The notes below the pieces were generated by a model. It did no database searches. It was not told the DNA's origin and saw only the letters and a program-made list of their open reading frames with translations. The translations under genes were made by a program, and so were the position numbers. Positions 5,648 to 18,325 of a stretch of DNA of 36,227 bases are shown piece by piece (positions within the stretch are counted from its first letter, which is position 1; every line of letters starts with the position of its first letter). The stretch lies in IMG/VR virus record IMGVR_UViG_638341087_000024, one strand, 5' to 3'. The DNA is from a virus. Taxonomy: Duplodnaviria > Heunggongvirae > Uroviricota > Caudoviricetes.

Positions 5648-6037
5648 ATGATTGACACTCATGACTTCACAAGATGGGTGCGCACACAGGACACCCGTCT
5701 GGCTCCCGTTCTTCAGGGATTATTTGATCTCTACATCCGTGGTCGTGACAACAGAGCACGCACCACAAAACCAGAGAATGCAGACACCCTTTATTTCACA
5801 GTAGACGACTGCTACCGCGTGGACTTCACACCACACGGGCTGGCGTTGCACTGCCTGACACCACACGGCGAATCACTACTGGCGTATTACGACTCCCCGG
5901 CCTCCGTATTTGCGGCAATGCTGGCGCATCGCACTGCTGGCGGGTGTGCCTCGCTGAGTGAATACACCGCTGAATTTAACCGCCTTTCCACCCTCTTCTC
6001 GCAGGAGTGGCAGCGCGTGACGGGATACCAGCCATGA
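5648..6037 (+). CDS. Hypothetical protein upstream of replication gene A
   Basis: 129-aa ORF; stop overlaps the A start (ATGA at 6034-6037). Confidence 0.5.
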   Translation: MIDTHDFTRWVRTQDTRLAPVLQGLFDLYIRGRDNRARTTKPENADTLYFTVDDCYRVDFTPHGLALHCLTPHGESLLAYYDSPASVFAAMLAHRTAGGCASLSEYTAEFNRLSTLFSQEWQRVTGYQP

Positions 6038-8874
6038 GTGAGTTTGCATGGAGCTGGAATGAACCACGGCCAGCCATTGATCCAGCCAGATTTACGGAGC
6101 ACAGGCAGGAAACTGAAACCGACCTGCAACGCGCCATCCGTTACTACCTTGAGGCGGACAAAAGGGCACAGAAAGAACAGGAAGCGAAGGAAGAAGCCTT
6201 TTTCGCACAATCCGCCATGGGTAAAAAACTCATGGCATCCCTTGAGGAAGCCGGACAGCGTGAAAAGCTGGCACAGAGCATCATCAGTAAGCGCCGGGCA
6301 ACAGAACAAGACCCGGTAGCCCGTGCCTTTGCCACACTGAAGGCGCTTCCCGTTTATCTGCGAGAACCTCTGAGCCGCCACCTCTCTTTCCTGCGCAAGA
6401 AGCAGGAAGCCGATCGTCAGAAAGGCAAAAAGAGCTGGCAGGCGGAACGCTATGCACGCGGAACCCTGCGCAAAATATTCGAACGTCTGGAGCGCACCGA
6501 CAGCCGCTGGCTGACACCGGGTTATCGCTCCCTTGCCGGACGCGAACGCCTGGACGATTTGGTTTACCTGCCGCAGCTCAACAAACACCAGATACAGACG
6601 CTGGCCACCATGACGGCGGCGATGTTCAGCAGCACCTTCGAAAAACTCTGCGATGGCTTTGGCGCGACTGATGGCGAACTGACCATGGATGTAACGCTGA
6701 AGGCGTATCAGATGCTGGCCCGCATGGCGTTACACCTGCACGCCATGCCTCCACATTATGACGCACTGACAACAGACAAAGACCGGAGGAACGAACCGGA
6801 CACGGAGCTGCTGCCGGGCGCAATCCTTCGCCTGACCTGTGCGGAATGGTGGAAACGCAAACTGTGGCTGTTACGTTGCGAGTGGAGAGAAGAACAACTC
6901 CGCGCCGCCTGTCTGGTTTCCAGAAAAACATCACCCTATCTGAGCCAGGACGCGTTAAGCGAGTTTCGCGCACAGCGCGAGAAAACACGCGATTTCCTGA
7001 AAAGTTTCATGCTGGAAAATGAAGACGGGTTCACGATTGATCTCGAGACGGTGTATTACGCGGGAGTAAGTAACCCGGTTCACCGTAAGGCAGAAATGAT
7101 GGCCACCATGAAGGGACTGGAACTTCTGGCCGAAGCCCGTGGCGACAGAGCGGTGTTTCTGACTGTCACCTGCCCGTCAAAATACCACGCAACAACGGAG
7201 AACGGTCATCCGAACCCCAAATGGAACGGGGCCACCATGCGCGACTCCAGCGATTACCTGGTTAACACGTTTTTTGCGGCGGTCCGCAAAAAACTGAACC
7301 GCGACGGTCTGCGCTGGTATGGCATCCGCACGGTGGAGCCTCACCATGACGGCACTGTACACTGGCATATGATGGTCTTTGCACATCCGGACGAGATTGA
7401 AACCATCGTGTCCCACGTCTGCGATATTGCCATTCAGGAGGACCGCCACGAGCTGGGCGATGACATAACTCCGCGTTTTAAGGCGGAGTATGTCGACGGC
7501 TCAAAAGGCACACCAACCAGCTACATCGCCACCTACATCGGAAAGAACTTGGACAGCCGCGCCGTGGATGGCATCGACCCGAAAACGGGCAAGCCACGCG
7601 TTGACCACGAAACCGGAAAATCAATGGCCGAGAGCGTGGAACGCGCCATCGGCTGGGCGCGCCTTCACCGGGTCCGCCAGTTCCAGTTCTTTGGTATCCC
7701 CTCCCGTCAGGTGTGGCGTGAACTGCGCCGCCTTGCCAGCCAGATGGCACGCAACCCGGAAGGCCCGCAACGGCTGAAGGATAACGCAATGGATGCGGTA
7801 CTCGCTGCCGCTGATGCCGGATGTTTTGCCACCTACATAGAGAAACAGGGCGGCGTACTTGTTCCACGCAAGAACTACCTGATTCGCACCGCCTACGACC
7901 TTGCAGATGAGCTGAACGATTACGGCGAGCAGAGTGTACAGATTTACGGGATCTGGTCGCCGCTCATCGGGGAGTCTTCCCGTGTGTGCACACATCCGGA
8001 TAACTGGAAACTGGTAAGACGTAAACCTGAAGCAGAAGACAGCGCCCGCGAAAATGGTTTTGACCTTCAGGGCGGCCCTGCCGCCCCTTGGACTCGTGGC
8101 AATAACTGTCCCCGTGTACAGGAAACAGACAACAACGGGACAGAACAGCCGGAAGAACGGCCAGCACCGTGGCCGCAGCTTCCTGACGGCATTGAAGTGA
8201 ATGAATGGATGCACTCACTGAAACGGCACGAACGCCGGGCGCTGATGCGTTCGCTGCGTGACAAACAGGCCAAAAACAGCAGCGATGAAATGCAGAACTG
8301 GACGCAGAGCCGCAAACAGCCGCGGCCTTTGCCTGATAACCACGAGTTACTCGCTAAAGAATGGCGGGAGTCTGCTGAATCTCTCGGCCTGCATATCGGT
8401 GAACAGCAGATGCTGCACCTGTTACGGGGTGGCAGTCTGTACGTTGACGGCAGCATCATTGCACCGCAGGGATTTGAAATTGTACGCAAACCGGATACCC
8501 GCCCGGACAGCCGAATCACGCAGCTCTGGCAACGCCTGAGCCGTAATCACGGCGTAAGCAGCACGGAGATCCGCCATAACCCGGTCGCCAGCTATCTGGA
8601 ACAGCTGGGGGCATCAGACCCTGAAGCCGCCGCACGCCTGGCATCCACACTTCAGCAAGACCAGAACACCATGAAAACACCCGTTACCGTGCTTTCTGAC
8701 ATGCTGCGCGCCATCCGCGACGCAGAGCACGCACAGAGAATCAGTGAAACCACTGAACGCGCCCGCCGCAAAGCATACCTGCTGCGGGGTGGCCTGACCA
8801 GTGGAAACAAAAAACAGACAGAAACGGGATTCACAAATCCCGTAAATGAGCAAAAAACGCGCCGCGATATATGA
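6034..8874 (+). CDS. A: Rolling-circle replication initiation endonuclease, P2 gpA family
   Basis: HUH-type motif (TVHWHMMVFAHP) and tandem-tyrosine motif (YIATYIGKN) typical of P2 A / phiX174 A-type initiators. Start taken at ATG 6034 (MSEFAWSW...). At about 946 aa it is longer than P2 gpA as recalled. Confidence 0.85.
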   Translation: MSEFAWSWNEPRPAIDPARFTEHRQETETDLQRAIRYYLEADKRAQKEQEAKEEAFFAQSAMGKKLMASLEEAGQREKLAQSIISKRRATEQDPVARAFATLKALPVYLREPLSRHLSFLRKKQEADRQKGKKSWQAERYARGTLRKIFERLERTDSRWLTPGYRSLAGRERLDDLVYLPQLNKHQIQTLATMTAAMFSSTFEKLCDGFGATDGELTMDVTLKAYQMLARMALHLHAMPPHYDALTTDKDRRNEPDTELLPGAILRLTCAEWWKRKLWLLRCEWREEQLRAACLVSRKTSPYLSQDALSEFRAQREKTRDFLKSFMLENEDGFTIDLETVYYAGVSNPVHRKAEMMATMKGLELLAEARGDRAVFLTVTCPSKYHATTENGHPNPKWNGATMRDSSDYLVNTFFAAVRKKLNRDGLRWYGIRTVEPHHDGTVHWHMMVFAHPDEIETIVSHVCDIAIQEDRHELGDDITPRFKAEYVDGSKGTPTSYIATYIGKNLDSRAVDGIDPKTGKPRVDHETGKSMAESVERAIGWARLHRVRQFQFFGIPSRQVWRELRRLASQMARNPEGPQRLKDNAMDAVLAAADAGCFATYIEKQGGVLVPRKNYLIRTAYDLADELNDYGEQSVQIYGIWSPLIGESSRVCTHPDNWKLVRRKPEAEDSARENGFDLQGGPAAPWTRGNNCPRVQETDNNGTEQPEERPAPWPQLPDGIEVNEWMHSLKRHERRALMRSLRDKQAKNSSDEMQNWTQSRKQPRPLPDNHELLAKEWRESAESLGLHIGEQQMLHLLRGGSLYVDGSIIAPQGFEIVRKPDTRPDSRITQLWQRLSRNHGVSSTEIRHNPVASYLEQLGASDPEAAARLASTLQQDQNTMKTPVTVLSDMLRAIRDAEHAQRISETTERARRKAYLLRGGLTSGNKKQTETGFTNPVNEQKTRRDI

Positions 8875-8950: not shown

Positions 8951-9910
8951 ATGAAAATTTGTATCGACGACGGCTCCACCAACATCAAGCTGGCATGGAC
9001 TGAGAACGGCGAACGCCGCAACGCCATCAGCCCGAACAGCTTCAAGTCGGAATGGTCTGCGCCGTTCGGTGGCACGCAGCCCGCGAACTACATGCTTGAT
9101 GGCGTGCGCTATGGTTTTGATCCGGTCAGCGATCGCTTTGTCCAGACGACCGACACGCAATACCAGTACAGTGATGTGAATGTCATTGCCATTCATCACG
9201 CACTGGTCAAATCAGGCATCACGCCACAGGAGGTGGATGTGGTTGTCACCCTGCCACTGAGCGAGTATTTCGACACAAACGCACAGCCGGACATGGCCAA
9301 CATCAACCGCAAAAAAGCGAACGTCATGCGCCCGGTGGAGTACCAGAACGGCGAAGCATTCACTATCCGTAACGTACGGGTTATGCCTGAATCCATTCCG
9401 GCTGGCTTTAAGGCACTGGCTGACATGAGTCCGTTTGAATCCCTGCTGATTGTGGATTTGGGCGGAACCACGCTGGATGTGGCAAAGGTTCAGGGGCAAC
9501 TGGCAGGTATCAGCCAGGTGTTTTGCGATCCACACGTAGGCGTTTCTCTGATGGCCGATGCCGTACTGTCGGTGATGGCCACTAACGGTATGCGCACCAG
9601 TCACCACATCGCCAATACCATTATCGAACATCGCCATGATGAAGCCTGGCTGCGCCAGCACATCCACAATGACGCGCATTACGACAGCCTGATGGCGGTT
9701 ATTCGTGAAAAGGAAGAAACACTGAAACAACGAGTGATCCGCGCGCTGGCGGGTTTTTCGGGTTACGGGCGGGTGATGGTTGTCGGTGGAGGGGCGGAGA
9801 TTGTGGCACCCGCTATCCGCGAAGCCTGCGGAGTTAATGCGACTTTCATCGCGGACGGGGTGCCACAGTTTGCTCTGGTCAATGGTTTGTACGCAATGGA
9901 CAAGGAGTAA
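8951..9910 (+). CDS. parM: ParM/StbA actin-like segregation ATPase (type II partition)
   Basis: N-terminus MKICIDDGSTNIKLAW... and internal motifs (YSDVNVIAIHHAL, VMPESIPAGF, LIVDLGGTTLDV, VMVVGGGAE, LVNGLYAM) closely track plasmid R1 ParM. Confidence 0.9.
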   Translation: MKICIDDGSTNIKLAWTENGERRNAISPNSFKSEWSAPFGGTQPANYMLDGVRYGFDPVSDRFVQTTDTQYQYSDVNVIAIHHALVKSGITPQEVDVVVTLPLSEYFDTNAQPDMANINRKKANVMRPVEYQNGEAFTIRNVRVMPESIPAGFKALADMSPFESLLIVDLGGTTLDVAKVQGQLAGISQVFCDPHVGVSLMADAVLSVMATNGMRTSHHIANTIIEHRHDEAWLRQHIHNDAHYDSLMAVIREKEETLKQRVIRALAGFSGYGRVMVVGGGAEIVAPAIREACGVNATFIADGVPQFALVNGLYAMDKE

Positions 9911-9914
9911 ACCA

Positions 9915-10226
9915 ATGACGACACCAACCAGACGGATAAGTTTCTATCTGAAGCCCGCCGCCGTCAAGAACGAAGGCGAAGCATGCGCCTGGCTGGACAG
10001 CCTTACACCAGAAGCCCGCAAAAGCGGCCAACGCGTGGCTTTTCTGGCCGGGCTGGCACTTCTGAAAATGAATCCGGCAGAGGCTTACCGACTGGCTGCA
10101 TGGGCTGACGATGAAGCGTTATCAGTGACACAAACCAGGGCAGAACGCCACATGTTACAGACAGCCCCCACCGCACAGATAACCAGTCAGATGGCCGGAA
10201 ATATCCGGGCGTTATTTCCCGATTAG
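9915..10226 (+). CDS. parR: ParR-like centromere-binding adaptor (ribbon-helix-helix)
   Basis: 103 aa from ATG 9915; RRISFYLKP...LDSL...AFLAGLALL and C-terminal NIRALFP parallel R1 ParR; directly follows parM. Confidence 0.75.
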   Translation: MTTPTRRISFYLKPAAVKNEGEACAWLDSLTPEARKSGQRVAFLAGLALLKMNPAEAYRLAAWADDEALSVTQTRAERHMLQTAPTAQITSQMAGNIRALFPD

Positions 10227-10356: not shown

Positions 10357-10875
10357 TTATAAAAAATAATCATCATGAGAGGAAACATGAAAATTATAAT
10401 CTCTCAATTGGGGGATAATCCCTCTACTCCAAAGCAACGTTTTATTTAGTCCAAGTCCATCTAATTTCATCATCCTGTTGCGCAGCGCAATGAATTCATT
10501 CTTGAAGTTATCTGCAGAGATGATCTTTGGGCAAAAACAAGAATACAACTTTCTATTACTTACACCACAAGCATTGGCAAGCTCATCCTCAAAATTGCTT
10601 GTTTGTTGAAATAGGTGGATTGTGTGTTTTTTCGCCTTTAATAGATTGAGATTATTCTTAAATCTATCAAGATTCTCAATCCTATCCGTATCAAAAACCA
10701 CTATGATTTCGCTATTTTCGGTTAATGCTGGCATGTATTTATTTATATTAACATTCCATAAATTAGCAATTACTATTTTCTTAATAGGATAGCCTAGCAA
10801 TGTTTTGAAATCCTGAAACAATGCTTTTTCCGTATCTCCCTCAACAAGAATAATAGCAAATTTCTTAACTGCCAT
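10357..10875 (-). CDS. Small TOPRIM-like putative nuclease (OLD / DUF4276 / DUF4435-like), distal gene of a two-gene cassette
   Basis: 172 aa from ATG 10873-10875 (the track's TTG-initiated ORF extends to 10881). N-terminal strand with conserved acidic residue (FAIILVEGDTEKALF) and a downstream DxD (IIVVFDTDRIE) match the TOPRIM core signature. Markedly AT-rich; starts 2 nt after the ATPase stop. Confidence 0.6.
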   Translation of the reverse strand: MAVKKFAIILVEGDTEKALFQDFKTLLGYPIKKIVIANLWNVNINKYMPALTENSEIIVVFDTDRIENLDRFKNNLNLLKAKKHTIHLFQQTSNFEDELANACGVSNRKLYSCFCPKIISADNFKNEFIALRNRMMKLDGLGLNKTLLWSRGIIPQLRDYNFHVSSHDDYFL

Positions 10876-10877
10876 AA

Positions 10878-12077
10878 TCAATCCTCAAATAGCATCTCTT
10901 CGATTAATGAAACGTCAGGTATTGTTGCAAAACAGTCATTTTTTACTTTATTTAAAAGATTGCGATCATTCTTTTTATGATGTGTGGTAGCTTCAACAAA
11001 AGTGGTTACACCATCTACTTTTTTAGTAAAAGTATATGAATGCGTAGGCAGATCTAAGCTCAAGATATCATAATTATGTGTGGTGTATATAAATTGACCA
11101 TATCTGCAAAGCTTAGATATAATCAGCGTGACCATCATTTTTTCTAATTCAGTATGAGTGAAGGCCATTTTCTCATCCAAAAAGTACACCCCACTGCAAG
11201 GGAAATTGAACTCTCGCTCTTCTATTTTATCTTCAAGCACTCCTGACAGGAGATGGGATATTTTTACTGCCTCATAAGTACCACGAGACAGTCTATCTTT
11301 ATTTGTTATATCACCTTCCATATCAATAATAACTCTATCTCCATTATTGAAGACTACTGAATAACCCTGCAAATCCTCCTTTCCCTCATCATCTTTAAGA
11401 GTGAGTCCTGAGACAGATTTAACAGTATTGTCAAAGGTTTTTAATATGCTATTAAGCACATTCTTCTTAATTCGTGATATTTTATCCGTGTTCTCTTGGT
11501 TTTCAGATAGAATGAAATGCCAACCAAGAACAAAGTCCAAACCCTCTAAATATTGGGAAAATTCTTTTGAGTTAGCGTTTTCGGTTGAAAAAAATCTATT
11601 TTGACCATTTAATTCAAACTTTTGCGCATCCCACACAGCATCCAGTCTTTTGGTCGTCTTTGCGCATGATTCCGAGCTTCTTAAATCAACAGATGCCATT
11701 GCAATTTTTTCTACAACAACAGACTCATCCATAGCCCTAAGCCAGACACCTGCCCTAAACAAACATTTTAAATGACTCTGGAAAAAGTCAACCTCTATAT
11801 ATGCAGGTTTTCTTTTGTCAGTAATTTTTAACGGTTCTGGATTGAAAACACCACTACTGAGAAAACGCAACACAGAAAGCATCACGCGACCAAGAGATGT
11901 TTTACCAGATGCATTAGCACCAGAAACGATGCAAACCTTTTTGAAGTAGAACTTTTCAAATCCATCAATGTACTCACCTTCCAGTGAGCTGTTGATCGGG
12001 GGTCTGGAGAAGCTTAAGTCAAGGATGCTATTTTCAAAGCAAAACAGATTATCGATTCTGATTTTTGTAAAAGCCAT
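10878..12077 (-). CDS. ABC-type ATPase (AAA_15/AAA_21-like, SMC/OLD-family fold), proximal gene of a two-gene cassette
   Basis: Walker A GANASGKTS (nt about 11895-11921), signature-like LSRGTYEAV, Walker B VYFLDE, H-loop IYTTHNYD. Shine-Dalgarno AAGGTGG 7 nt upstream of ATG 12075-12077. AT-rich relative to flanking phage genes. Confidence 0.8.
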   Translation of the reverse strand: MAFTKIRIDNLFCFENSILDLSFSRPPINSSLEGEYIDGFEKFYFKKVCIVSGANASGKTSLGRVMLSVLRFLSSGVFNPEPLKITDKRKPAYIEVDFFQSHLKCLFRAGVWLRAMDESVVVEKIAMASVDLRSSESCAKTTKRLDAVWDAQKFELNGQNRFFSTENANSKEFSQYLEGLDFVLGWHFILSENQENTDKISRIKKNVLNSILKTFDNTVKSVSGLTLKDDEGKEDLQGYSVVFNNGDRVIIDMEGDITNKDRLSRGTYEAVKISHLLSGVLEDKIEEREFNFPCSGVYFLDEKMAFTHTELEKMMVTLIISKLCRYGQFIYTTHNYDILSLDLPTHSYTFTKKVDGVTTFVEATTHHKKNDRNLLNKVKNDCFATIPDVSLIEEMLFED

Positions 12078-12163
12078 TTTGTTCCACCTTTTGGAAGTAA
12101 ATATTGCTACCTGTTGAGTTTACATGTAATGAGCTGGTAAGCAATACAGGGATTCGATTTAGC

Positions 12164-12189
12164 GCACAATAGTGCACAAATTTGCACAA
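12164..12189. promoter_or_regulatory. Three helically phased GCACAA hexamers upstream of the ATPase gene
   Basis: GCACAA at 12164, 12174 and 12184 (exact 10-bp periodicity) within GCGCACAATAGTGCACAAATTTGCACAA, about 90-110 bp upstream of the cassette start codon. Candidate regulator site. Confidence 0.35.
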
Positions 12190-12259
12190 TTTTTTTGAAC
12201 GAATTTTTGCCCTTCTGGCCCGCGTGGCGGCTGGATCCGTCAGGGATCCGTGCGTGCAC

Positions 12260-12284
12260 AAAAAAACGCGCTTTTTCTGCGCGC
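12260..12284 (-). terminator. Intrinsic terminator insulating the ATPase/TOPRIM cassette from leftward read-through
   Basis: Read on the minus strand: GCGCGC-AGAAAAA-GCGCG hairpin followed by T7; located between the portal gene end and the cassette promoter region. Confidence 0.5.
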
Positions 12285-12445
12285 AGGTGACGGGGGAACA
12301 GCCCGCGTTTCAGGGGGTAAATAGCATTCCCTGAACGATGTCGCAGAGACACAACAGAATGGCTGTATTTCTCACGCTGAGCATGAAAAATACGTGAGGG
12401 ATTCTGATTTGATGGGGTGAAAGGTAAGGCCGTCAAAATCGCACT

Positions 12446-12464
12446 GAGGCGGCGAAGAACATGC
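12446..12464. other. Candidate cos-like site (tentative)
   Basis: GAGGCGGCGAAGAACATGC loosely resembles the P2/186 19-nt cohesive end (GGCGAGGCGGGGAAAGCAC as recalled) and lies where cos is expected, between the accessory locus and Q. The match is imperfect. Confidence 0.2.
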
Positions 12465-12561
12465 AGTCAACGCGGTGGGATTGCGTAAGAGTCTGACCGC
12501 CGATGATGGCAATAAGCAGAAAAGCGTCGTGAAATTATCTGATTGATACAGGAGCTGGAGA

Positions 12562-12590
12562 GCCGGGGCATAAATTTTTTATGCCCCGGC
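12562..12590. repeat. Perfect 13-bp inverted repeat hairpin downstream of the portal gene
   Basis: GCCGGGGCATAAA-TTT-TTTATGCCCCGGC; no flanking U-tract, so not a classical intrinsic terminator. Possible RNA stability element or packaging-region structure. Confidence 0.5.
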
Positions 12591-12614
12591 GAAGCAGCAG
12601 ACAAGCGAAGCGCG

Positions 12615-13661
12615 TCAGGATGTGGGCTGGGTATCTAACAGTGCGTAAGGGTTAAAGCGGATCACCTCTTCGCCAAGCCAGTCATTGATGTGCTTCATGG
12701 CCTCCATGACGGGCATCAGCTCGTTAATTGCGTAAACCCGCGCGGCCTTCTCCACATCACCAAACGCACTTTTTTCACCCGGCATCGCCCCCATCAGTTG
12801 CGGCGGAACGCGGTGCGCAGCCAGCACATCATCACGGGATGCCGCCTTAACATTCATGAACTCATCCTTTGCGGTGATCTGCTGGAACGGCAAAATTTGC
12901 ACCCCCTCTTTACCCCCGTTGGGCGCATGAATGAGCACGTTTTTAAACGCACCGCCACCACGTGCACCCTGTAGCGTTTCTTTCAGGGAGTCCATGCTTT
13001 CGCGGTTTACCTGCGCTGCACCGATGTAGATGATGCACCCGGCGTGGGATCCGTTGTCGTAATACAGTTTTCTGAACATGTCCGCCGAATGAGACAGGCT
13101 GGCCGAGAGTAATGCGCCGAGATATTCCGGCATGCCGTAGATTTCCTGGTTAATGTCAGGATTCATCAGGTGGCACACTTTGCCAGGGCGAAACTGGAAC
13201 GCATCCTTGCCATCCTGCACATACCACCATGATTCAAGATCGCTACCGCGTCGCATGTATTTCGCCAGGGCGTGCCGTAATTTAAGCGGTTCGCCGAGCA
13301 TATTGCTTCGAAGCTCAAGGAATGCGTTACCGAACACAAACCAGTCCAGCGCCAGCGCCGAGAAATCCTGCCGGGAAAGCAGCGGGTGCGGGATGTAGCA
13401 ACCGAGTAATACATTGCGCTTAAAGTAAAGCGCAGACTGATGCCAGGACGTTTGCCGGGCAGCTCTTGCCAGACCGTACCAGTCCACCGGGGTTTCATAC
13501 CACCGCCCGTTATCAGCACAGTACATATTGTCCAGCAGGTCATGCCCGGTCAGGCGATAAGGACCATCAAATGTGAATGCACTGAGCGACGATTCTTTCC
13601 TGAGCGCATCAGCGAGATCAATGCGTGAACTCATGCGCACTTTTTTATTTTTTCTGCTCAT
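12615..13661 (-). CDS. Q: Portal protein (P2 gpQ)
   Basis: 348 aa; extensive colinearity with P2 Q (FTFDGP..., NGRWYE, VFGNAFLE, NPDINQEIYGMPEYLGAL, HRVPPQLMG, EVIRF). Confidence 0.92.
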   Translation of the reverse strand: MSRKNKKVRMSSRIDLADALRKESSLSAFTFDGPYRLTGHDLLDNMYCADNGRWYETPVDWYGLARAARQTSWHQSALYFKRNVLLGCYIPHPLLSRQDFSALALDWFVFGNAFLELRSNMLGEPLKLRHALAKYMRRGSDLESWWYVQDGKDAFQFRPGKVCHLMNPDINQEIYGMPEYLGALLSASLSHSADMFRKLYYDNGSHAGCIIYIGAAQVNRESMDSLKETLQGARGGGAFKNVLIHAPNGGKEGVQILPFQQITAKDEFMNVKAASRDDVLAAHRVPPQLMGAMPGEKSAFGDVEKAARVYAINELMPVMEAMKHINDWLGEEVIRFNPYALLDTQPTS

Positions 13662-15412
13662 CAGAACTCCATAACCGTGAAACGCTCGTTTTCTCCTTCG
13701 CCGCCAATCGGTTCGTTAATGACAGCGAGCATGGTTGCCCACGCAAGGTCGCCGTGGCTGATCCCCCTCGCGCGGTCCGTTTCGTAAGTGATAAAGCCGC
13801 CCGGTGTTTTCACCTTACGCACGGCGTTAAAGGCCGCGACCAGCTCGCGTTCGGCGCGATCGTATTCCCACCGCCCGGCACGCATTATTTGCAGCATTTT
13901 CAGTACCAGCGACCGTTTTGATGACAGCGTGAAGGTGTACGGAATAGCAGCAGGGAAAAACCGTTTCACTATCTGATAAACAGCCTCCCCGTTCCCGCCC
14001 GTCACATCAATGCCGATGTGTTCCACGTTGTAGCGACACGTGAACTCTTCAATGACTCTGGCCTGTTCTTCAAACTCCAGCCCCTGAACGCGTCGCGTCT
14101 CCACCGTTCGAAAACGGCCACCAGGAACAGCCGGAGGAACCACCACGGACACAGCGCCGCTGTCGCCGTTGCCACTGCTGCCGTTTGCGTCATACCCAAT
14201 CCATACCGGACGATTCCCCATCGGGTGGGGAGCAAAAGGTTTCCAGTCTTTCCAGTCGTCGTATCCGTCAACGCCACAGCCAATCAGGATATTCAGGTTA
14301 AATGCCGATTCCCCTTCGCGGACAAACTCACACATATAGAGATTGAGGAACTCGTCTTCGGTGTTTTCATCACGAATTTCATCAATATCGGTGTGTTTCC
14401 AGCCGTGATTAACCACATCTTCCAGCGTGACAATTTGCCGCCACGTCCGGTCAGGGCAGATAAGCCCGTTATGCAGCGTTTTCCAGTCCACAGAAAAACG
14501 CTGGCGTTTATGCGAGGCCTTTTTCTCGTTCCAGCGGTCGCCGTTCCAGTAGGCGTATGCCTCGTGCGTTTCGGTGGATGGCGTGGAGAAGTAGGTGCGC
14601 CGCAGTCCGCTGAGGGTTGCCATAGCGCCAGCCACCTTGCGCAGTTCAGCAAAGCGACTGACCCAGAAAAATTCATCAAAATAAAAATTGCCCGTATAGG
14701 ACTGTGCCGACGCAGCAGAAGTGCCGAGAAAATGCAGCTCTGCGCCGTTGGAGAGGATGATTTTATCGCCCCCTTTCAGCTCCACATCAACTTCAGCCGC
14801 GGCCTTCTGAATAATGCTTTTAAACTGGAACGCCTGACGACGCGACGCAGACAAAAAAATCTGGTTACGCTGGTAAGGTTGCGCCACATCGTCACGCAGC
14901 GCCATCAGCAGTGCTTCCTGTGCAAAATACCAGGTCGCCCCAATCTGTCGGGATTTCAGGATCATCCTGTTACGTATCCCGGCTTCCCTGCAAAGGGTCA
15001 GGGAGTCAAACCAGCTCCGCTGATGCCACTCCAGCCTGCTGATGATTTTTTCCCGCAGTGCGGCAATCTGTTCCGGCGTGAAATGATTTTTGAGTTTTTT
15101 CGCCCGGCCTTTCTTTCCTGCGGCCATCACATCCGGCTGGCCATCATGCAGCTTTTTAAGCTGCCGTGTCAGCAGGTCTATTTCCTTAAAGTCACCGCCT
15201 GTTTTATTCTGTTTTTCAGTAAGCTGGATGAGGCGCGCATCGATGGACTGCGTGACACGCTGCACGGGTGGCGTTTCATCCCACTGGTCACGTTTTTTCC
15301 ACGCATAAATCGTGTTCGGGTTTATTCCCATCAGACGTGATATTTCTGCGGGCGGATAACCCTGCCAGTAAAGTTGCCGCGCACGCTGGCGCACAAAAGC
15401 GTCCTGAATCAT
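13661..15412 (-). CDS. P: Terminase large subunit / ATPase (P2 gpP)
   Basis: 583 aa; N-terminus RQRARQLYWQGYPPAEISRLMGINPNTIYAWKKR matches P2 P; stop overlaps Q start. Confidence 0.9.
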   Translation of the reverse strand: MIQDAFVRQRARQLYWQGYPPAEISRLMGINPNTIYAWKKRDQWDETPPVQRVTQSIDARLIQLTEKQNKTGGDFKEIDLLTRQLKKLHDGQPDVMAAGKKGRAKKLKNHFTPEQIAALREKIISRLEWHQRSWFDSLTLCREAGIRNRMILKSRQIGATWYFAQEALLMALRDDVAQPYQRNQIFLSASRRQAFQFKSIIQKAAAEVDVELKGGDKIILSNGAELHFLGTSAASAQSYTGNFYFDEFFWVSRFAELRKVAGAMATLSGLRRTYFSTPSTETHEAYAYWNGDRWNEKKASHKRQRFSVDWKTLHNGLICPDRTWRQIVTLEDVVNHGWKHTDIDEIRDENTEDEFLNLYMCEFVREGESAFNLNILIGCGVDGYDDWKDWKPFAPHPMGNRPVWIGYDANGSSGNGDSGAVSVVVPPAVPGGRFRTVETRRVQGLEFEEQARVIEEFTCRYNVEHIGIDVTGGNGEAVYQIVKRFFPAAIPYTFTLSSKRSLVLKMLQIMRAGRWEYDRAERELVAAFNAVRKVKTPGGFITYETDRARGISHGDLAWATMLAVINEPIGGEGENERFTVMEF

Positions 15413-17524: not shown

Positions 17525-18325
17525 ATGATTACTCCTGCACAACAACACTGGCAGAACGTGATGGCACAGCGCGCAGGCCGGGCGAATGAAGGCGTGGACC
17601 ACGCCGCGCGTACCGCGCATGAAGAGGTGCTGTATCGTCTGCGTCTGGCACAGGCCCGGCTTAAGGGCGTACAGGCCAGAAGCGCGAAAGCCGCCATCAA
17701 AAAAGAGTTGTTGCCGGATTTTTCCGGCTGGATTGAGGGAACGCTGGAGGCTGACGGCGGGCAGCAGGATGAAGTGATTGCCACGCTGATGGTGTGGGCG
17801 ATTGACTGTGGCGATCTTCCGCTTGCGCTGCGTATCGGCGCGTATGTGGTCCGTCACAACCTCATCATGCCGGATAACTTTGGCCGTACTGCTGCCACGG
17901 TACTGACCGAAGAAATCTGTAATCCGGTACTGACGCAGGCCGGGACGGATGCCGACGCGGATTTGTCCGCCTTTATCGAACCACTGGACACCCTCCGGGA
18001 GATTGTCACCGACCAGGACATGCCGGACGAAGTGCGCGCCAAATTATGCAAAGCGTGCGCCTTTGTCCGCCGTGGCCTGAGTGATGCGGACAGCATGGCC
18101 CTGTCACTGAAGCTGCTGCGCGAAGCAATGCACCTGAACCCGAACGCAGGTGTGAAACGCGAGATTGCAACCCTTTCCCGCGCCCTGAAAAAAGCCGATT
18201 CCGCAGCCGCACCAGAAGACGCCAGCGCACAGCAGACGCAGGACGAAAGCAGCAAAAGTAAAAAGACAACGCGGAAGCCTGCAACACGAAAAACCACCGC
18301 GACGCAGAAGGCGAAGCGCGGTTAA
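17525..18325 (+). CDS. M: Terminase small subunit / endonuclease subunit (P2 gpM)
   Basis: 266 aa; position after N and before L; basic C-terminal tail. Confidence 0.8.
   Translation: MITPAQQHWQNVMAQRAGRANEGVDHAARTAHEEVLYRLRLAQARLKGVQARSAKAAIKKELLPDFSGWIEGTLEADGGQQDEVIATLMVWAIDCGDLPLALRIGAYVVRHNLIMPDNFGRTAATVLTEEICNPVLTQAGTDADADLSAFIEPLDTLREIVTDQDMPDEVRAKLCKACAFVRRGLSDADSMALSLKLLREAMHLNPNAGVKREIATLSRALKKADSAAAPEDASAQQTQDESSKSKKTTRKPATRKTTATQKAKRG

Follow-up and report, generated by a model that had tools for sequence, protein, structure and literature searches.

What the 537-bp gap at positions 12078-12614 does is the question raised by the IMG/VR virus record IMGVR_UViG_638341087_000024, of which a stretch of 36,227 nt, here called the window, was analysed. 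The gap separates the ATPase gene of a defence-like cassette from the portal gene, and a first-pass annotation had taken it for the packaging region, containing the cos site, fused to the regulatory region of the cassette. The first half of that reading is upheld and the second is not: about 165 bp of the gap, 12164-12328, very probably serves a P88-like prophage of the P2 family as its cos, or DNA-packaging, signal, and everything to the left of 12164 is exchangeable cargo. This assignment is made because of the architecture of the module, its conservation and its presence in a satellite-like element, and not because of alignment with known cos sites.

Conservation of the box array and the border of the cargo

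The module consists of the following elements, read on the plus strand.

12164-12189, plus: boxes 1-3, GCACAA three times in 10-bp phasing (12164, 12174, 12184), the proposed terminase recognition array
12190-12198, plus: T7GA tract directly after box 3, at least 90% conserved in 30 representatives, a possible intrinsic bend
12209-12221, plus: GCCCTTCTGGCCC motif (family consensus GCCCTTYCSGCCC), moderately conserved
12222-12254, plus: variable GC-rich spacer with short dyads, poorly conserved, holding the GGATCCGT duplication (12233-12240 and 12244-12251)
12255-12266, plus: box 4, TGCACAA (12255-12261) and then an A-run, the counterpart of TGCATTAAAA in the 55-bp cos core of P2/P4
12279-12310, plus: putative cos core GCGCGCAGGTGACGGGGGAACAGCCCGCG, the most conserved non-coding block in all lineages
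12305-12328, plus: right flank of the putative cos, GCGTTTCAGGGGGTAAAT..., the last stretch shared with the satellite

The three GCACAA hexamers had been located exactly in the first-pass annotation, which missed the fourth TGCACAA at 12255-12261. The three-box pattern, with up to two mismatches allowed, occurs once in the window, against 0.01 occurrences expected from shuffled sequences. Similarity to P88 and to more than 100 relatives begins exactly at 12164, the first base of box 1, and the more than 100 related IMG/VR loci carry many unrelated left flanks, all of which join the same box 1; some flanks hold cargo on the plus strand with a terminator of its own at the end, the arrangement seen in P88.

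As a guard against circular reasoning, relatives were re-collected with an anchor taken from the putative cos core and not from the boxes, so that only GTGACGGGGG of the core was imposed by the search. In these core-anchored sets, the exact three boxes were present in 90 of 122 loci, and the distance from box 1 to the core anchor was 123 bp in 87 of those 90. Nearly all of the other loci depart from the pattern by a single base, mostly in box 1, or are truncated where the fetched stretch ends, and two are unrelated. A scan of metagenomes agrees, with the boxes found in every true homologue.

The conservation profile was drawn from an alignment of 30 representatives with pairwise identities below 93%. 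The boxes, the T7GA tract, the TGCAC and A-run of box 4, and the block GCGCGCAGGTGACGGGGGAACAGCCC are invariant or nearly so, the TGCAC of box 4 being strictly invariant, whereas the GGATCCG-bearing spacer, the hairpin arm and everything past about 12330 are unconserved. The sequence of the spacer at 12222-12254 varies but its length does not, with box 3 and box 4 separated by 72 bp in all systems compared. The GGATCCG(T) duplication noted earlier at 12233 and 12244 is indeed present but is near chance: short repeats in the 537 bp give three overlapping counts (two from this repeat and one from the boxes) against a shuffle mean of 0.3, and the duplication is absent outside the P88-like lineage and from the satellite.

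Geometry compared with the mapped cos sites of P2, P4 and 186

The cohesive ends of P2, P4 and 186 are annotated, and the ends were joined to read the layout of each site, with distances counted from the nick. The order in these three genomes is three TGCAT boxes, a GC-rich spacer with a small dyad, a fourth box TGCATTAAAA, a short GC-rich stretch, the 19-nt end and TGCGCGC; in 186, TTGCCCGTTCTGG occupies the place of the GCCCTTCTGGCCC motif of the window. The starts of the boxes relative to the nick are as follows.

P2: -123, -111, -101, -29; spacings 12, 10 and 72 bp
P4: -124, -111, -101, -29; spacings 13, 10 and 72 bp
186: -124, -111, -101, -29; spacings 13, 10 and 72 bp
Window (from the nick predicted at 12286): -123, -113, -103, -31; spacings 10, 10 and 72 bp
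Satellite (from the nick predicted at its GGTGAC): -123, -113, -103, -31; spacings 10, 10 and 72 bp

The spacing of 10 bp between boxes 2 and 3 and that of 72 bp between boxes 3 and 4 are therefore identical in all five, and the distance from box 4 to the nick is 29 nt where mapped in P2, P4 and 186 and is predicted to be 29-31 nt in the window. The window thus shows the architecture of P2, P4 and 186: three TGCAY boxes, 72 bp and a fourth box, with the nick, here a predicted one, about 29 nt further on. The box core TGCAY is common to both groups, and the spacer sequences no longer align.

The window site resembles those of P2, 186 and P4 in its placement between an accessory hotspot and the portal gene, in the succession of elements (three TGCAY boxes, an interval of 72 bp, box 4 with its A-run, a G-rich end, predicted in the window, about 30 bp further on, and then GCG), and in being the only DNA common to helper phage and satellite. 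It differs in that its boxes are TGCAC(AA) instead of TGCAT, boxes 1 and 2 lie 10 bp rather than 12-13 bp apart, there is a T7 tract after box 3, P2 and the predicted end GGTGACGGGGGAACAGCCC agree at only 13 of 19 positions, and no nucleotide homology to P2-type sites is detectable beyond the motifs; moreover, its ends are predicted whereas theirs are mapped.

The P2/P4 cos "core" of 55 bp cited in the literature (PMC5694545, PMC9594776) spans box 4 to just past the end, and the three distal boxes fall outside it. These boxes are nevertheless kept in the P4-like satellites, of which 80 loci were fetched via Psu, about 75 of them extending through cos, and they are retained even where Psu is only 62-64% identical to that of P4. 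Homology among these loci stops 7 bp after the cohesive end. Every P4-like satellite identified by way of Psu has the P2-type cos, and none has the P88-type.

The cos of phage lambda is organized as cosQ-cosN-cosB, with R sites for gpNu1 and a bend introduced by integration host factor. The window site is similar to it in combining a nicking site with repeated sites, here putative, for the recognition subunit of terminase and bendable A/T tracts between them; there is no homology of sequence or protein, the number and spacing of the repeats differ, and the accessory sites of the window all lie on one side (satellite homology ends 7-25 bp past the nick). The small terminase subunit (TerS) of the window shares 35% identity with its 186 counterpart and has diverged no further than the scaffold (35%) or the capsid protein (39%); this comparison is uninformative on specificity.

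A satellite-like island that shares only the module

Partial matches to the region in Escherichia coli genomes include a satellite-like island of about 13 kb between hpt and gcd in E. coli DLI.6n (NZ_CP103974.1, about 4030.5-4043.1 kb; L250 2532-15060). Its genes code for two integrases, an Icd-like protein, a toprim protein of 889 aa, an Ogr/Delta-like zinc finger protein, a homologue of the P2-family major capsid protein (423 aa, 36% identical to the capsid protein of the window), MazEF and a 236-aa protein without a Pfam match, and it has no portal, terminase or tail genes, Sid or Psu. In one of its intergenic regions, three TGCACAA copies spaced 10 bp apart are accompanied by the T-tract, GCCCATCCGGCCC, box 4 and GCGCGCAGGTGACGGGGGAACAGC. 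When the island was compared with the whole window by nucleotide search, a single match was obtained, 12164-12328, at 79.8% identity over 165 bp (L247 5001-5165).

A non-autonomous element that needs the terminase of a helper keeps 12164-12328 alone, and this is the strongest evidence available that the module is a packaging signal. DNA common to helper phage and satellite was found in the same way in the P4 family, with the P2-type cos. Islands of this type occur in 55 of 5426 E. coli genomes, and more than 1100 other E. coli genomes match the island over about 165 bp only, the match being the cos region of their P88-like prophages. The capsid-bearing island may represent a hitherto undescribed family of satellites supplying their own capsid protein.

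Upstream of its cos, the island is also rich in GGTTACAA/TGTAACC repeats, found in both orientations around a centre rich in A and T (L247 4480-4760), a region that, judged by its repeats, looks like an iteron-type replication origin.

Alternative functions of the conserved boxes

The first-pass annotation had proposed that the phased GCACAA repeats may be operator sites, bound by a regulator through which the defence-like cassette is expressed according to phage state. Their position would suit such a role, since the repeats lie 20 bp upstream of a candidate -35 element, about -54 to -79 from the candidate start, and in P2 the mapped old-tin starts (33424/33426) put the -35 element of the old promoter over box 1. 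However, the repeats are the first bases of the conserved backbone and not part of the cassette: homology breaks exactly at box 1, the geometry equals that of the mapped cos sites of P2, P4 and 186, and the boxes are conserved beside any cargo, including the plus-strand cargo with its own terminator in P88. In the satellite they are likewise kept, there adjoining the origin-like repeat region and an integrase gene. An operator of the cassette is improbable because the boxes are independent of the cargo; rather than co-varying with the cassette, the same boxes stand beside dozens of unrelated left flanks.

The old-tin transcript of P2 starts about 150 bp to the left of cos, and the old-tin promoter places its -35 element (TTGAAT) on top of cos box 1 (P2 33424-33480; L005 3425-3481). 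In P2 itself, terminase binding and old expression could interfere.

A somewhat less probable alternative is that the conserved block has no sequence-specific function and is kept only as a homology arm for exchange of cargo by recombination. The border of the hotspot does coincide with box 1, and Rousset et al. speculate that cos ends promote exchange (PMC9122126). A passive arm, however, would not be expected to hold the 72-bp spacing while the spacers of P2-type and P88-type sites diverge completely, nor to be the sole DNA shared with satellites.

The predicted site of cleavage

Within the cos module, the cohesive end can be predicted by analogy in two ways. If the window produces a 19-nt overhang, as is assumed here from its relatives, comparison with the reference G-rich 5′ cohesive end of 19 nt, GGCGAGGCGGGGAAAGCAC, places the end at 12286-12304, GGTGACGGGGGAACAGCCC, whereas the 29-nt geometry of the mapped sites would place it at 12284-12302. 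The core aligns with the cos sites of P2, P4 and 186 in architecture, and when the P4 cos module is aligned locally, the top-scoring match is 12279-12307. The reference ends begin with GGCGAGG... in P2 and GGCGTGG... in 186, and that of phiRSA1 begins with GGTGAGG... (GGTGAGGCGGGG...; PMC5694545); the start GGTGA is common to GGTGACGGGGGAACAGCCC and the phiRSA1 end.

Several observations weigh against the packaging assignment or against the precise placement of the cut. The two predictions differ by 2 nt on the nick, and the uncertainty of placement is at least ±2 nt because the placement rests on architecture and conservation. The 19-mer GGTGACGGGGGAACAGCCC matches the end of P2 at 13 of 19 positions and that of 186 at 11 of 19, which taken alone is not above chance, and local alignments of the 19-mer or of the 210-bp cos modules of P2, P4 and 186 to the gap score within the range of shuffled sequences. 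Among the phage records and the IMG/VR and metagenome contigs, none was seen to have an end at the predicted site, although this is a weak test given that most stretches are contig-internal. Finally, terminase binding might also affect the candidate cassette promoter close by, the boxes lying at about -54 to -79 from its candidate start. The core sequence GTGACGGGGGAAC was not found in the papers searched, and the P88 papers found do not define cos.

Cleavage elsewhere in the gap is less likely again than a passive homology arm. The first-pass annotation had seen a sequence loosely resembling the P2/186 cohesive end at 12446-12464, and this stretch does contain GAGGCGG, which is present in the P2 cos. 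It nevertheless matches P2 at 10 and 186 at 9 of 19 positions, which is the level of chance (213 sites in the window score at least 11/19 to the P2 cos), it lies about 160 bp too far to the right, and it varies by an insertion or deletion among close relatives. Its conservation does not extend beyond the P88-like group, and neither the other lineages nor the satellite have it; the conserved cos core is at about 12279-12310. A cut at 12207/12208 could be read from the linear P88_4B11 record, LR595891, which ends with ...GAACGAATTTT and begins with TGCCCTTCC..., but nucleotide 1 of this record was chosen relative to reference genomes after trimming of contig-end repeats, and its ends were therefore rejected as physical ends (PMC6969025).

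A short inverted repeat follows directly after the core in each lineage, with arms that differ: CCC-N8-GGG in the window (12302-12318), AGCCC-N8-GGGCT and GCCCC-N7-GGGGC elsewhere, and AGCAC-N15-GTGCT in P2. This repeat may be a symmetry element of the nicking site.

Model for recognition and cleavage

On the cos assignment, packaging would start with binding of the box array by the phage terminase, composed of a gpM-like small subunit and a gpP-like large subunit (TerL); the boxes might be read either by the small subunit or by the N-terminal helix-turn-helix of the large subunit. Boxes 1-3 would lie on one face of the helix, with box 4 about seven turns away beside the nick and A/T tracts between and after them. 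The large subunit would then introduce staggered nicks in the GC-rich core, so that the circular or concatemeric genome is cut within GCGCGCAG|GTGACGGGGGAACAGCCC|GCG, at about 12284/6 and 12302/4. By analogy with the relatives, the cut would leave 19-nt 5′ cohesive ends, and packaging of the DNA would follow. To the right of the module, the hairpin at 12562-12590 would end the terminase-portal late transcript, and to the left of 12164 the AbiL-like cassette would run from its own promoter in 12078-12163.

Possible specificity groups among P2-family cos sites

The predicted cos of the window is a new member of the P2-family cos sites, in which the letters of recognition have changed and the geometry has been preserved. 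That the 72-bp and 10-bp spacings are invariant in cos sites that can no longer be aligned argues for a fixed terminase-DNA architecture throughout the P2 family. The satellite with a P88-type cos suggests that helpers and satellites form specificity groups. Tentatively, and with the case for and against nearly in balance, P2-like phages may be divided into at least two packaging-specificity groups that share one fixed geometry and have their own satellites, one with TGCAT boxes and a GGCGAGGCGGGG... end (P2, 186 and P4) and the other with TGCACAA boxes and a GGTGACGGGGGAAC... end (P88-like); a change of specificity would then be a barrier to, or an escape from, piracy of the P4 type. If this is true, P88-type satellites encode a homologue of the P2-family capsid protein instead of Sid and Psu.

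Current understanding is not overturned by these results, and the cos feature itself is ordinary, though neatly resolved; the capsid-gene-bearing satellite that uses the P88-type cos is the more novel side result. For a prophage family that about 23% of complete E. coli genomes contain, a base-precise and testable cos map becomes available. With the border of the cos-proximal defence hotspot fixed at 12163/12164, clean excision of the cargo cassette would become possible, and a defined module of about 165 bp would permit cosmid or transducing-particle designs for P88-like helpers.

Prophage, gene order and hotspot

Within the P2 family, the prophage that makes up the window belongs to the P88-like group (genus Xuanwuvirus, family Peduoviridae). 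The genes around the gap are listed below, those that flank it directly being as first annotated.

6007-8874, plus: GPA-type replication protein
8951-9910, plus: ParM
10357-10881, minus: OLD-like TOPRIM protein, 174 aa
10878-12077, minus: AAA_15 ATPase, 399 aa
12078-12614: gap under study
12615-13661, minus: portal protein
13661-15412, minus: TerL, gpP-like, with an N-terminal helix-turn-helix
15534-16403, plus: GPO scaffold
17525-18325: TerS, gpM-like

Comparison by annotation shows that the gene order of P2 (old/tin, cosR/cosL, Q, P) matches that of the window, and the position between the accessory locus on the gene A side and the portal gene Q was found in the annotation of both P2 and P88. 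This locus between gene A and gene Q, beside cos, has been published as a hotspot where P2-like phages carry defence genes (Rousset et al. 2022, PMC9122126), and the earlier description of the gap as a cos region beside a defence-like cassette holds. The region was found in 1224 of 5426 complete E. coli genomes (about 23%); in E. coli 504838 (NZ_CP025856) it is 99.8% identical. The ATPase and TOPRIM genes, which overlap by 4 bp, are AbiLi-like and AbiLii-like, respectively, by PADLOC models (9.6e-28 and 6.2e-5), and the pair (10357-12077, minus strand) is in effect a split relative of P2 Old at the old locus. The likeness to the old/tin locus of P2 lies in a variable cassette directly to the left of cos, with its own promoter (in the window a candidate one) and transcription away from cos; the difference lies in the cargo itself and in the boundary, which in the window is resolved to the base, 12163/12164.

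A ParM/ParR-like partition pair (8951-10226) sits between the replication gene and the hotspot and is found in only 43 of 77 related loci. The parC sites of partition systems such as ParMRC of plasmid R1 are arrays of phased direct repeats. That the boxes are the parC-like centromere of the phage ParM/ParR system is the least probable of the alternatives, even though the window encodes ParM and a ParR-like protein, since a ParM homologue accompanies the module in only those 43 of the 77 loci with a complete hotspot, equivalent boxes occur in P2, 186 and P4, whose annotation lists no ParM, the satellite has the boxes with no annotated ParM and no DNA similarity to parM, and the array is separated from parM by the cargo and is not upstream of it.

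Leader, hairpins and spacer in the remainder of the gap

Outside the cos module, the gap contains the following features.

12078-12163, minus: cargo-specific leader of the AbiL-like cassette, 86 bp
12266-12284, minus: terminator-like hairpin with a GCGCGC/GCGCGT stem and a 7-nt loop, followed by T7, positive in the terminator pattern scan
12329-12561: lineage-specific spacer containing the earlier cos candidate 12446-12464, not conserved in other lineages or in the satellite
12562-12590, minus: perfect 13-bp stem (12562-12574/12578-12590) with a loop of 3 nt, located 24 nt beyond the stop codon of the portal gene

Homology of the leader to P88 and the other relatives stops at 12163/12164, and this left flank recurs only alongside the same cassette (L070, L086 and H70). 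From its sequence, the leader may contain a sigma-70 promoter, with a candidate -35 element TTGCTT (12144-12139), a 16-nt spacer and a candidate -10 element TAAACT (12122-12117); the hexamers score 8/12, which is under the threshold of the scanner, and so were not listed by the scan. A Shine-Dalgarno sequence AAGGTGG at 12090-12084 precedes the ATG at 12077.

The insulating minus-strand terminator proposed earlier is recognizable as the hairpin and T7 at 12266-12284 but is weak and lineage-specific. Its T-run is the complement of the A-run of box 4, its energy is -11.8 kcal/mol (z = -1.5 against shuffles), and the minimum-energy fold consumes the T-run. Neither the other lineages nor the satellite have this hairpin, and some variants have a shorter stem with no compensating changes. 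The hairpin may reduce the extent to which late-operon transcription runs on into the cargo.

A scan of 11800-12900 against Rfam at E <= 1 gave no match. The open reading frames (ORFs) wholly within 12329-12561 are of at most 46 aa, and 12290-12615 contains only mechanical ORFs of at most 50 aa. These small ORFs were rejected as genes; a 1-nt insertion or deletion relative to P88 breaks the frame of an annotated 42-aa ORF.

The 13-bp inverted repeat at 12562-12574/12578-12590 is, as had been stated, perfect, and it is highly significant, with a folding energy of -31 to -33 kcal/mol and z of about -6.3 on both strands; none of 200 shuffled sequences was as stable. A GC-rich hairpin follows the portal gene in every lineage, each with a different sequence, and some have canonical U-tracts, such as GCGGCGGTTTTTATT; the stem is of 11 bp in most relatives and 13 bp in the window, where it has no U-tract and is followed by CTCTCCAG. 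The terminators tQ of P2 and tW of 186 are annotated at the same place, and by analogy the hairpin is proposed to be a terminator or 3′ stabiliser of the terminase-portal late operon. It resembles tQ and tW as a GC-rich hairpin on the coding strand immediately after the portal stop codon and differs in that the P88-type hairpin is without a U-tract and is thus no canonical intrinsic terminator.

In many relatives, including strains of sequence type 131 (ST131), an insertion of about 630 bp lies between the 13-bp hairpin and the portal gene, as at L251 1969-2603 in phage vB_EcoM-569R5, a position equivalent to 12618-12640 of the window. The insertion encodes a 174-aa protein on the plus strand, has its own terminator and replaces the last ~8 portal codons; its site is a second small moron site, to the right of cos.

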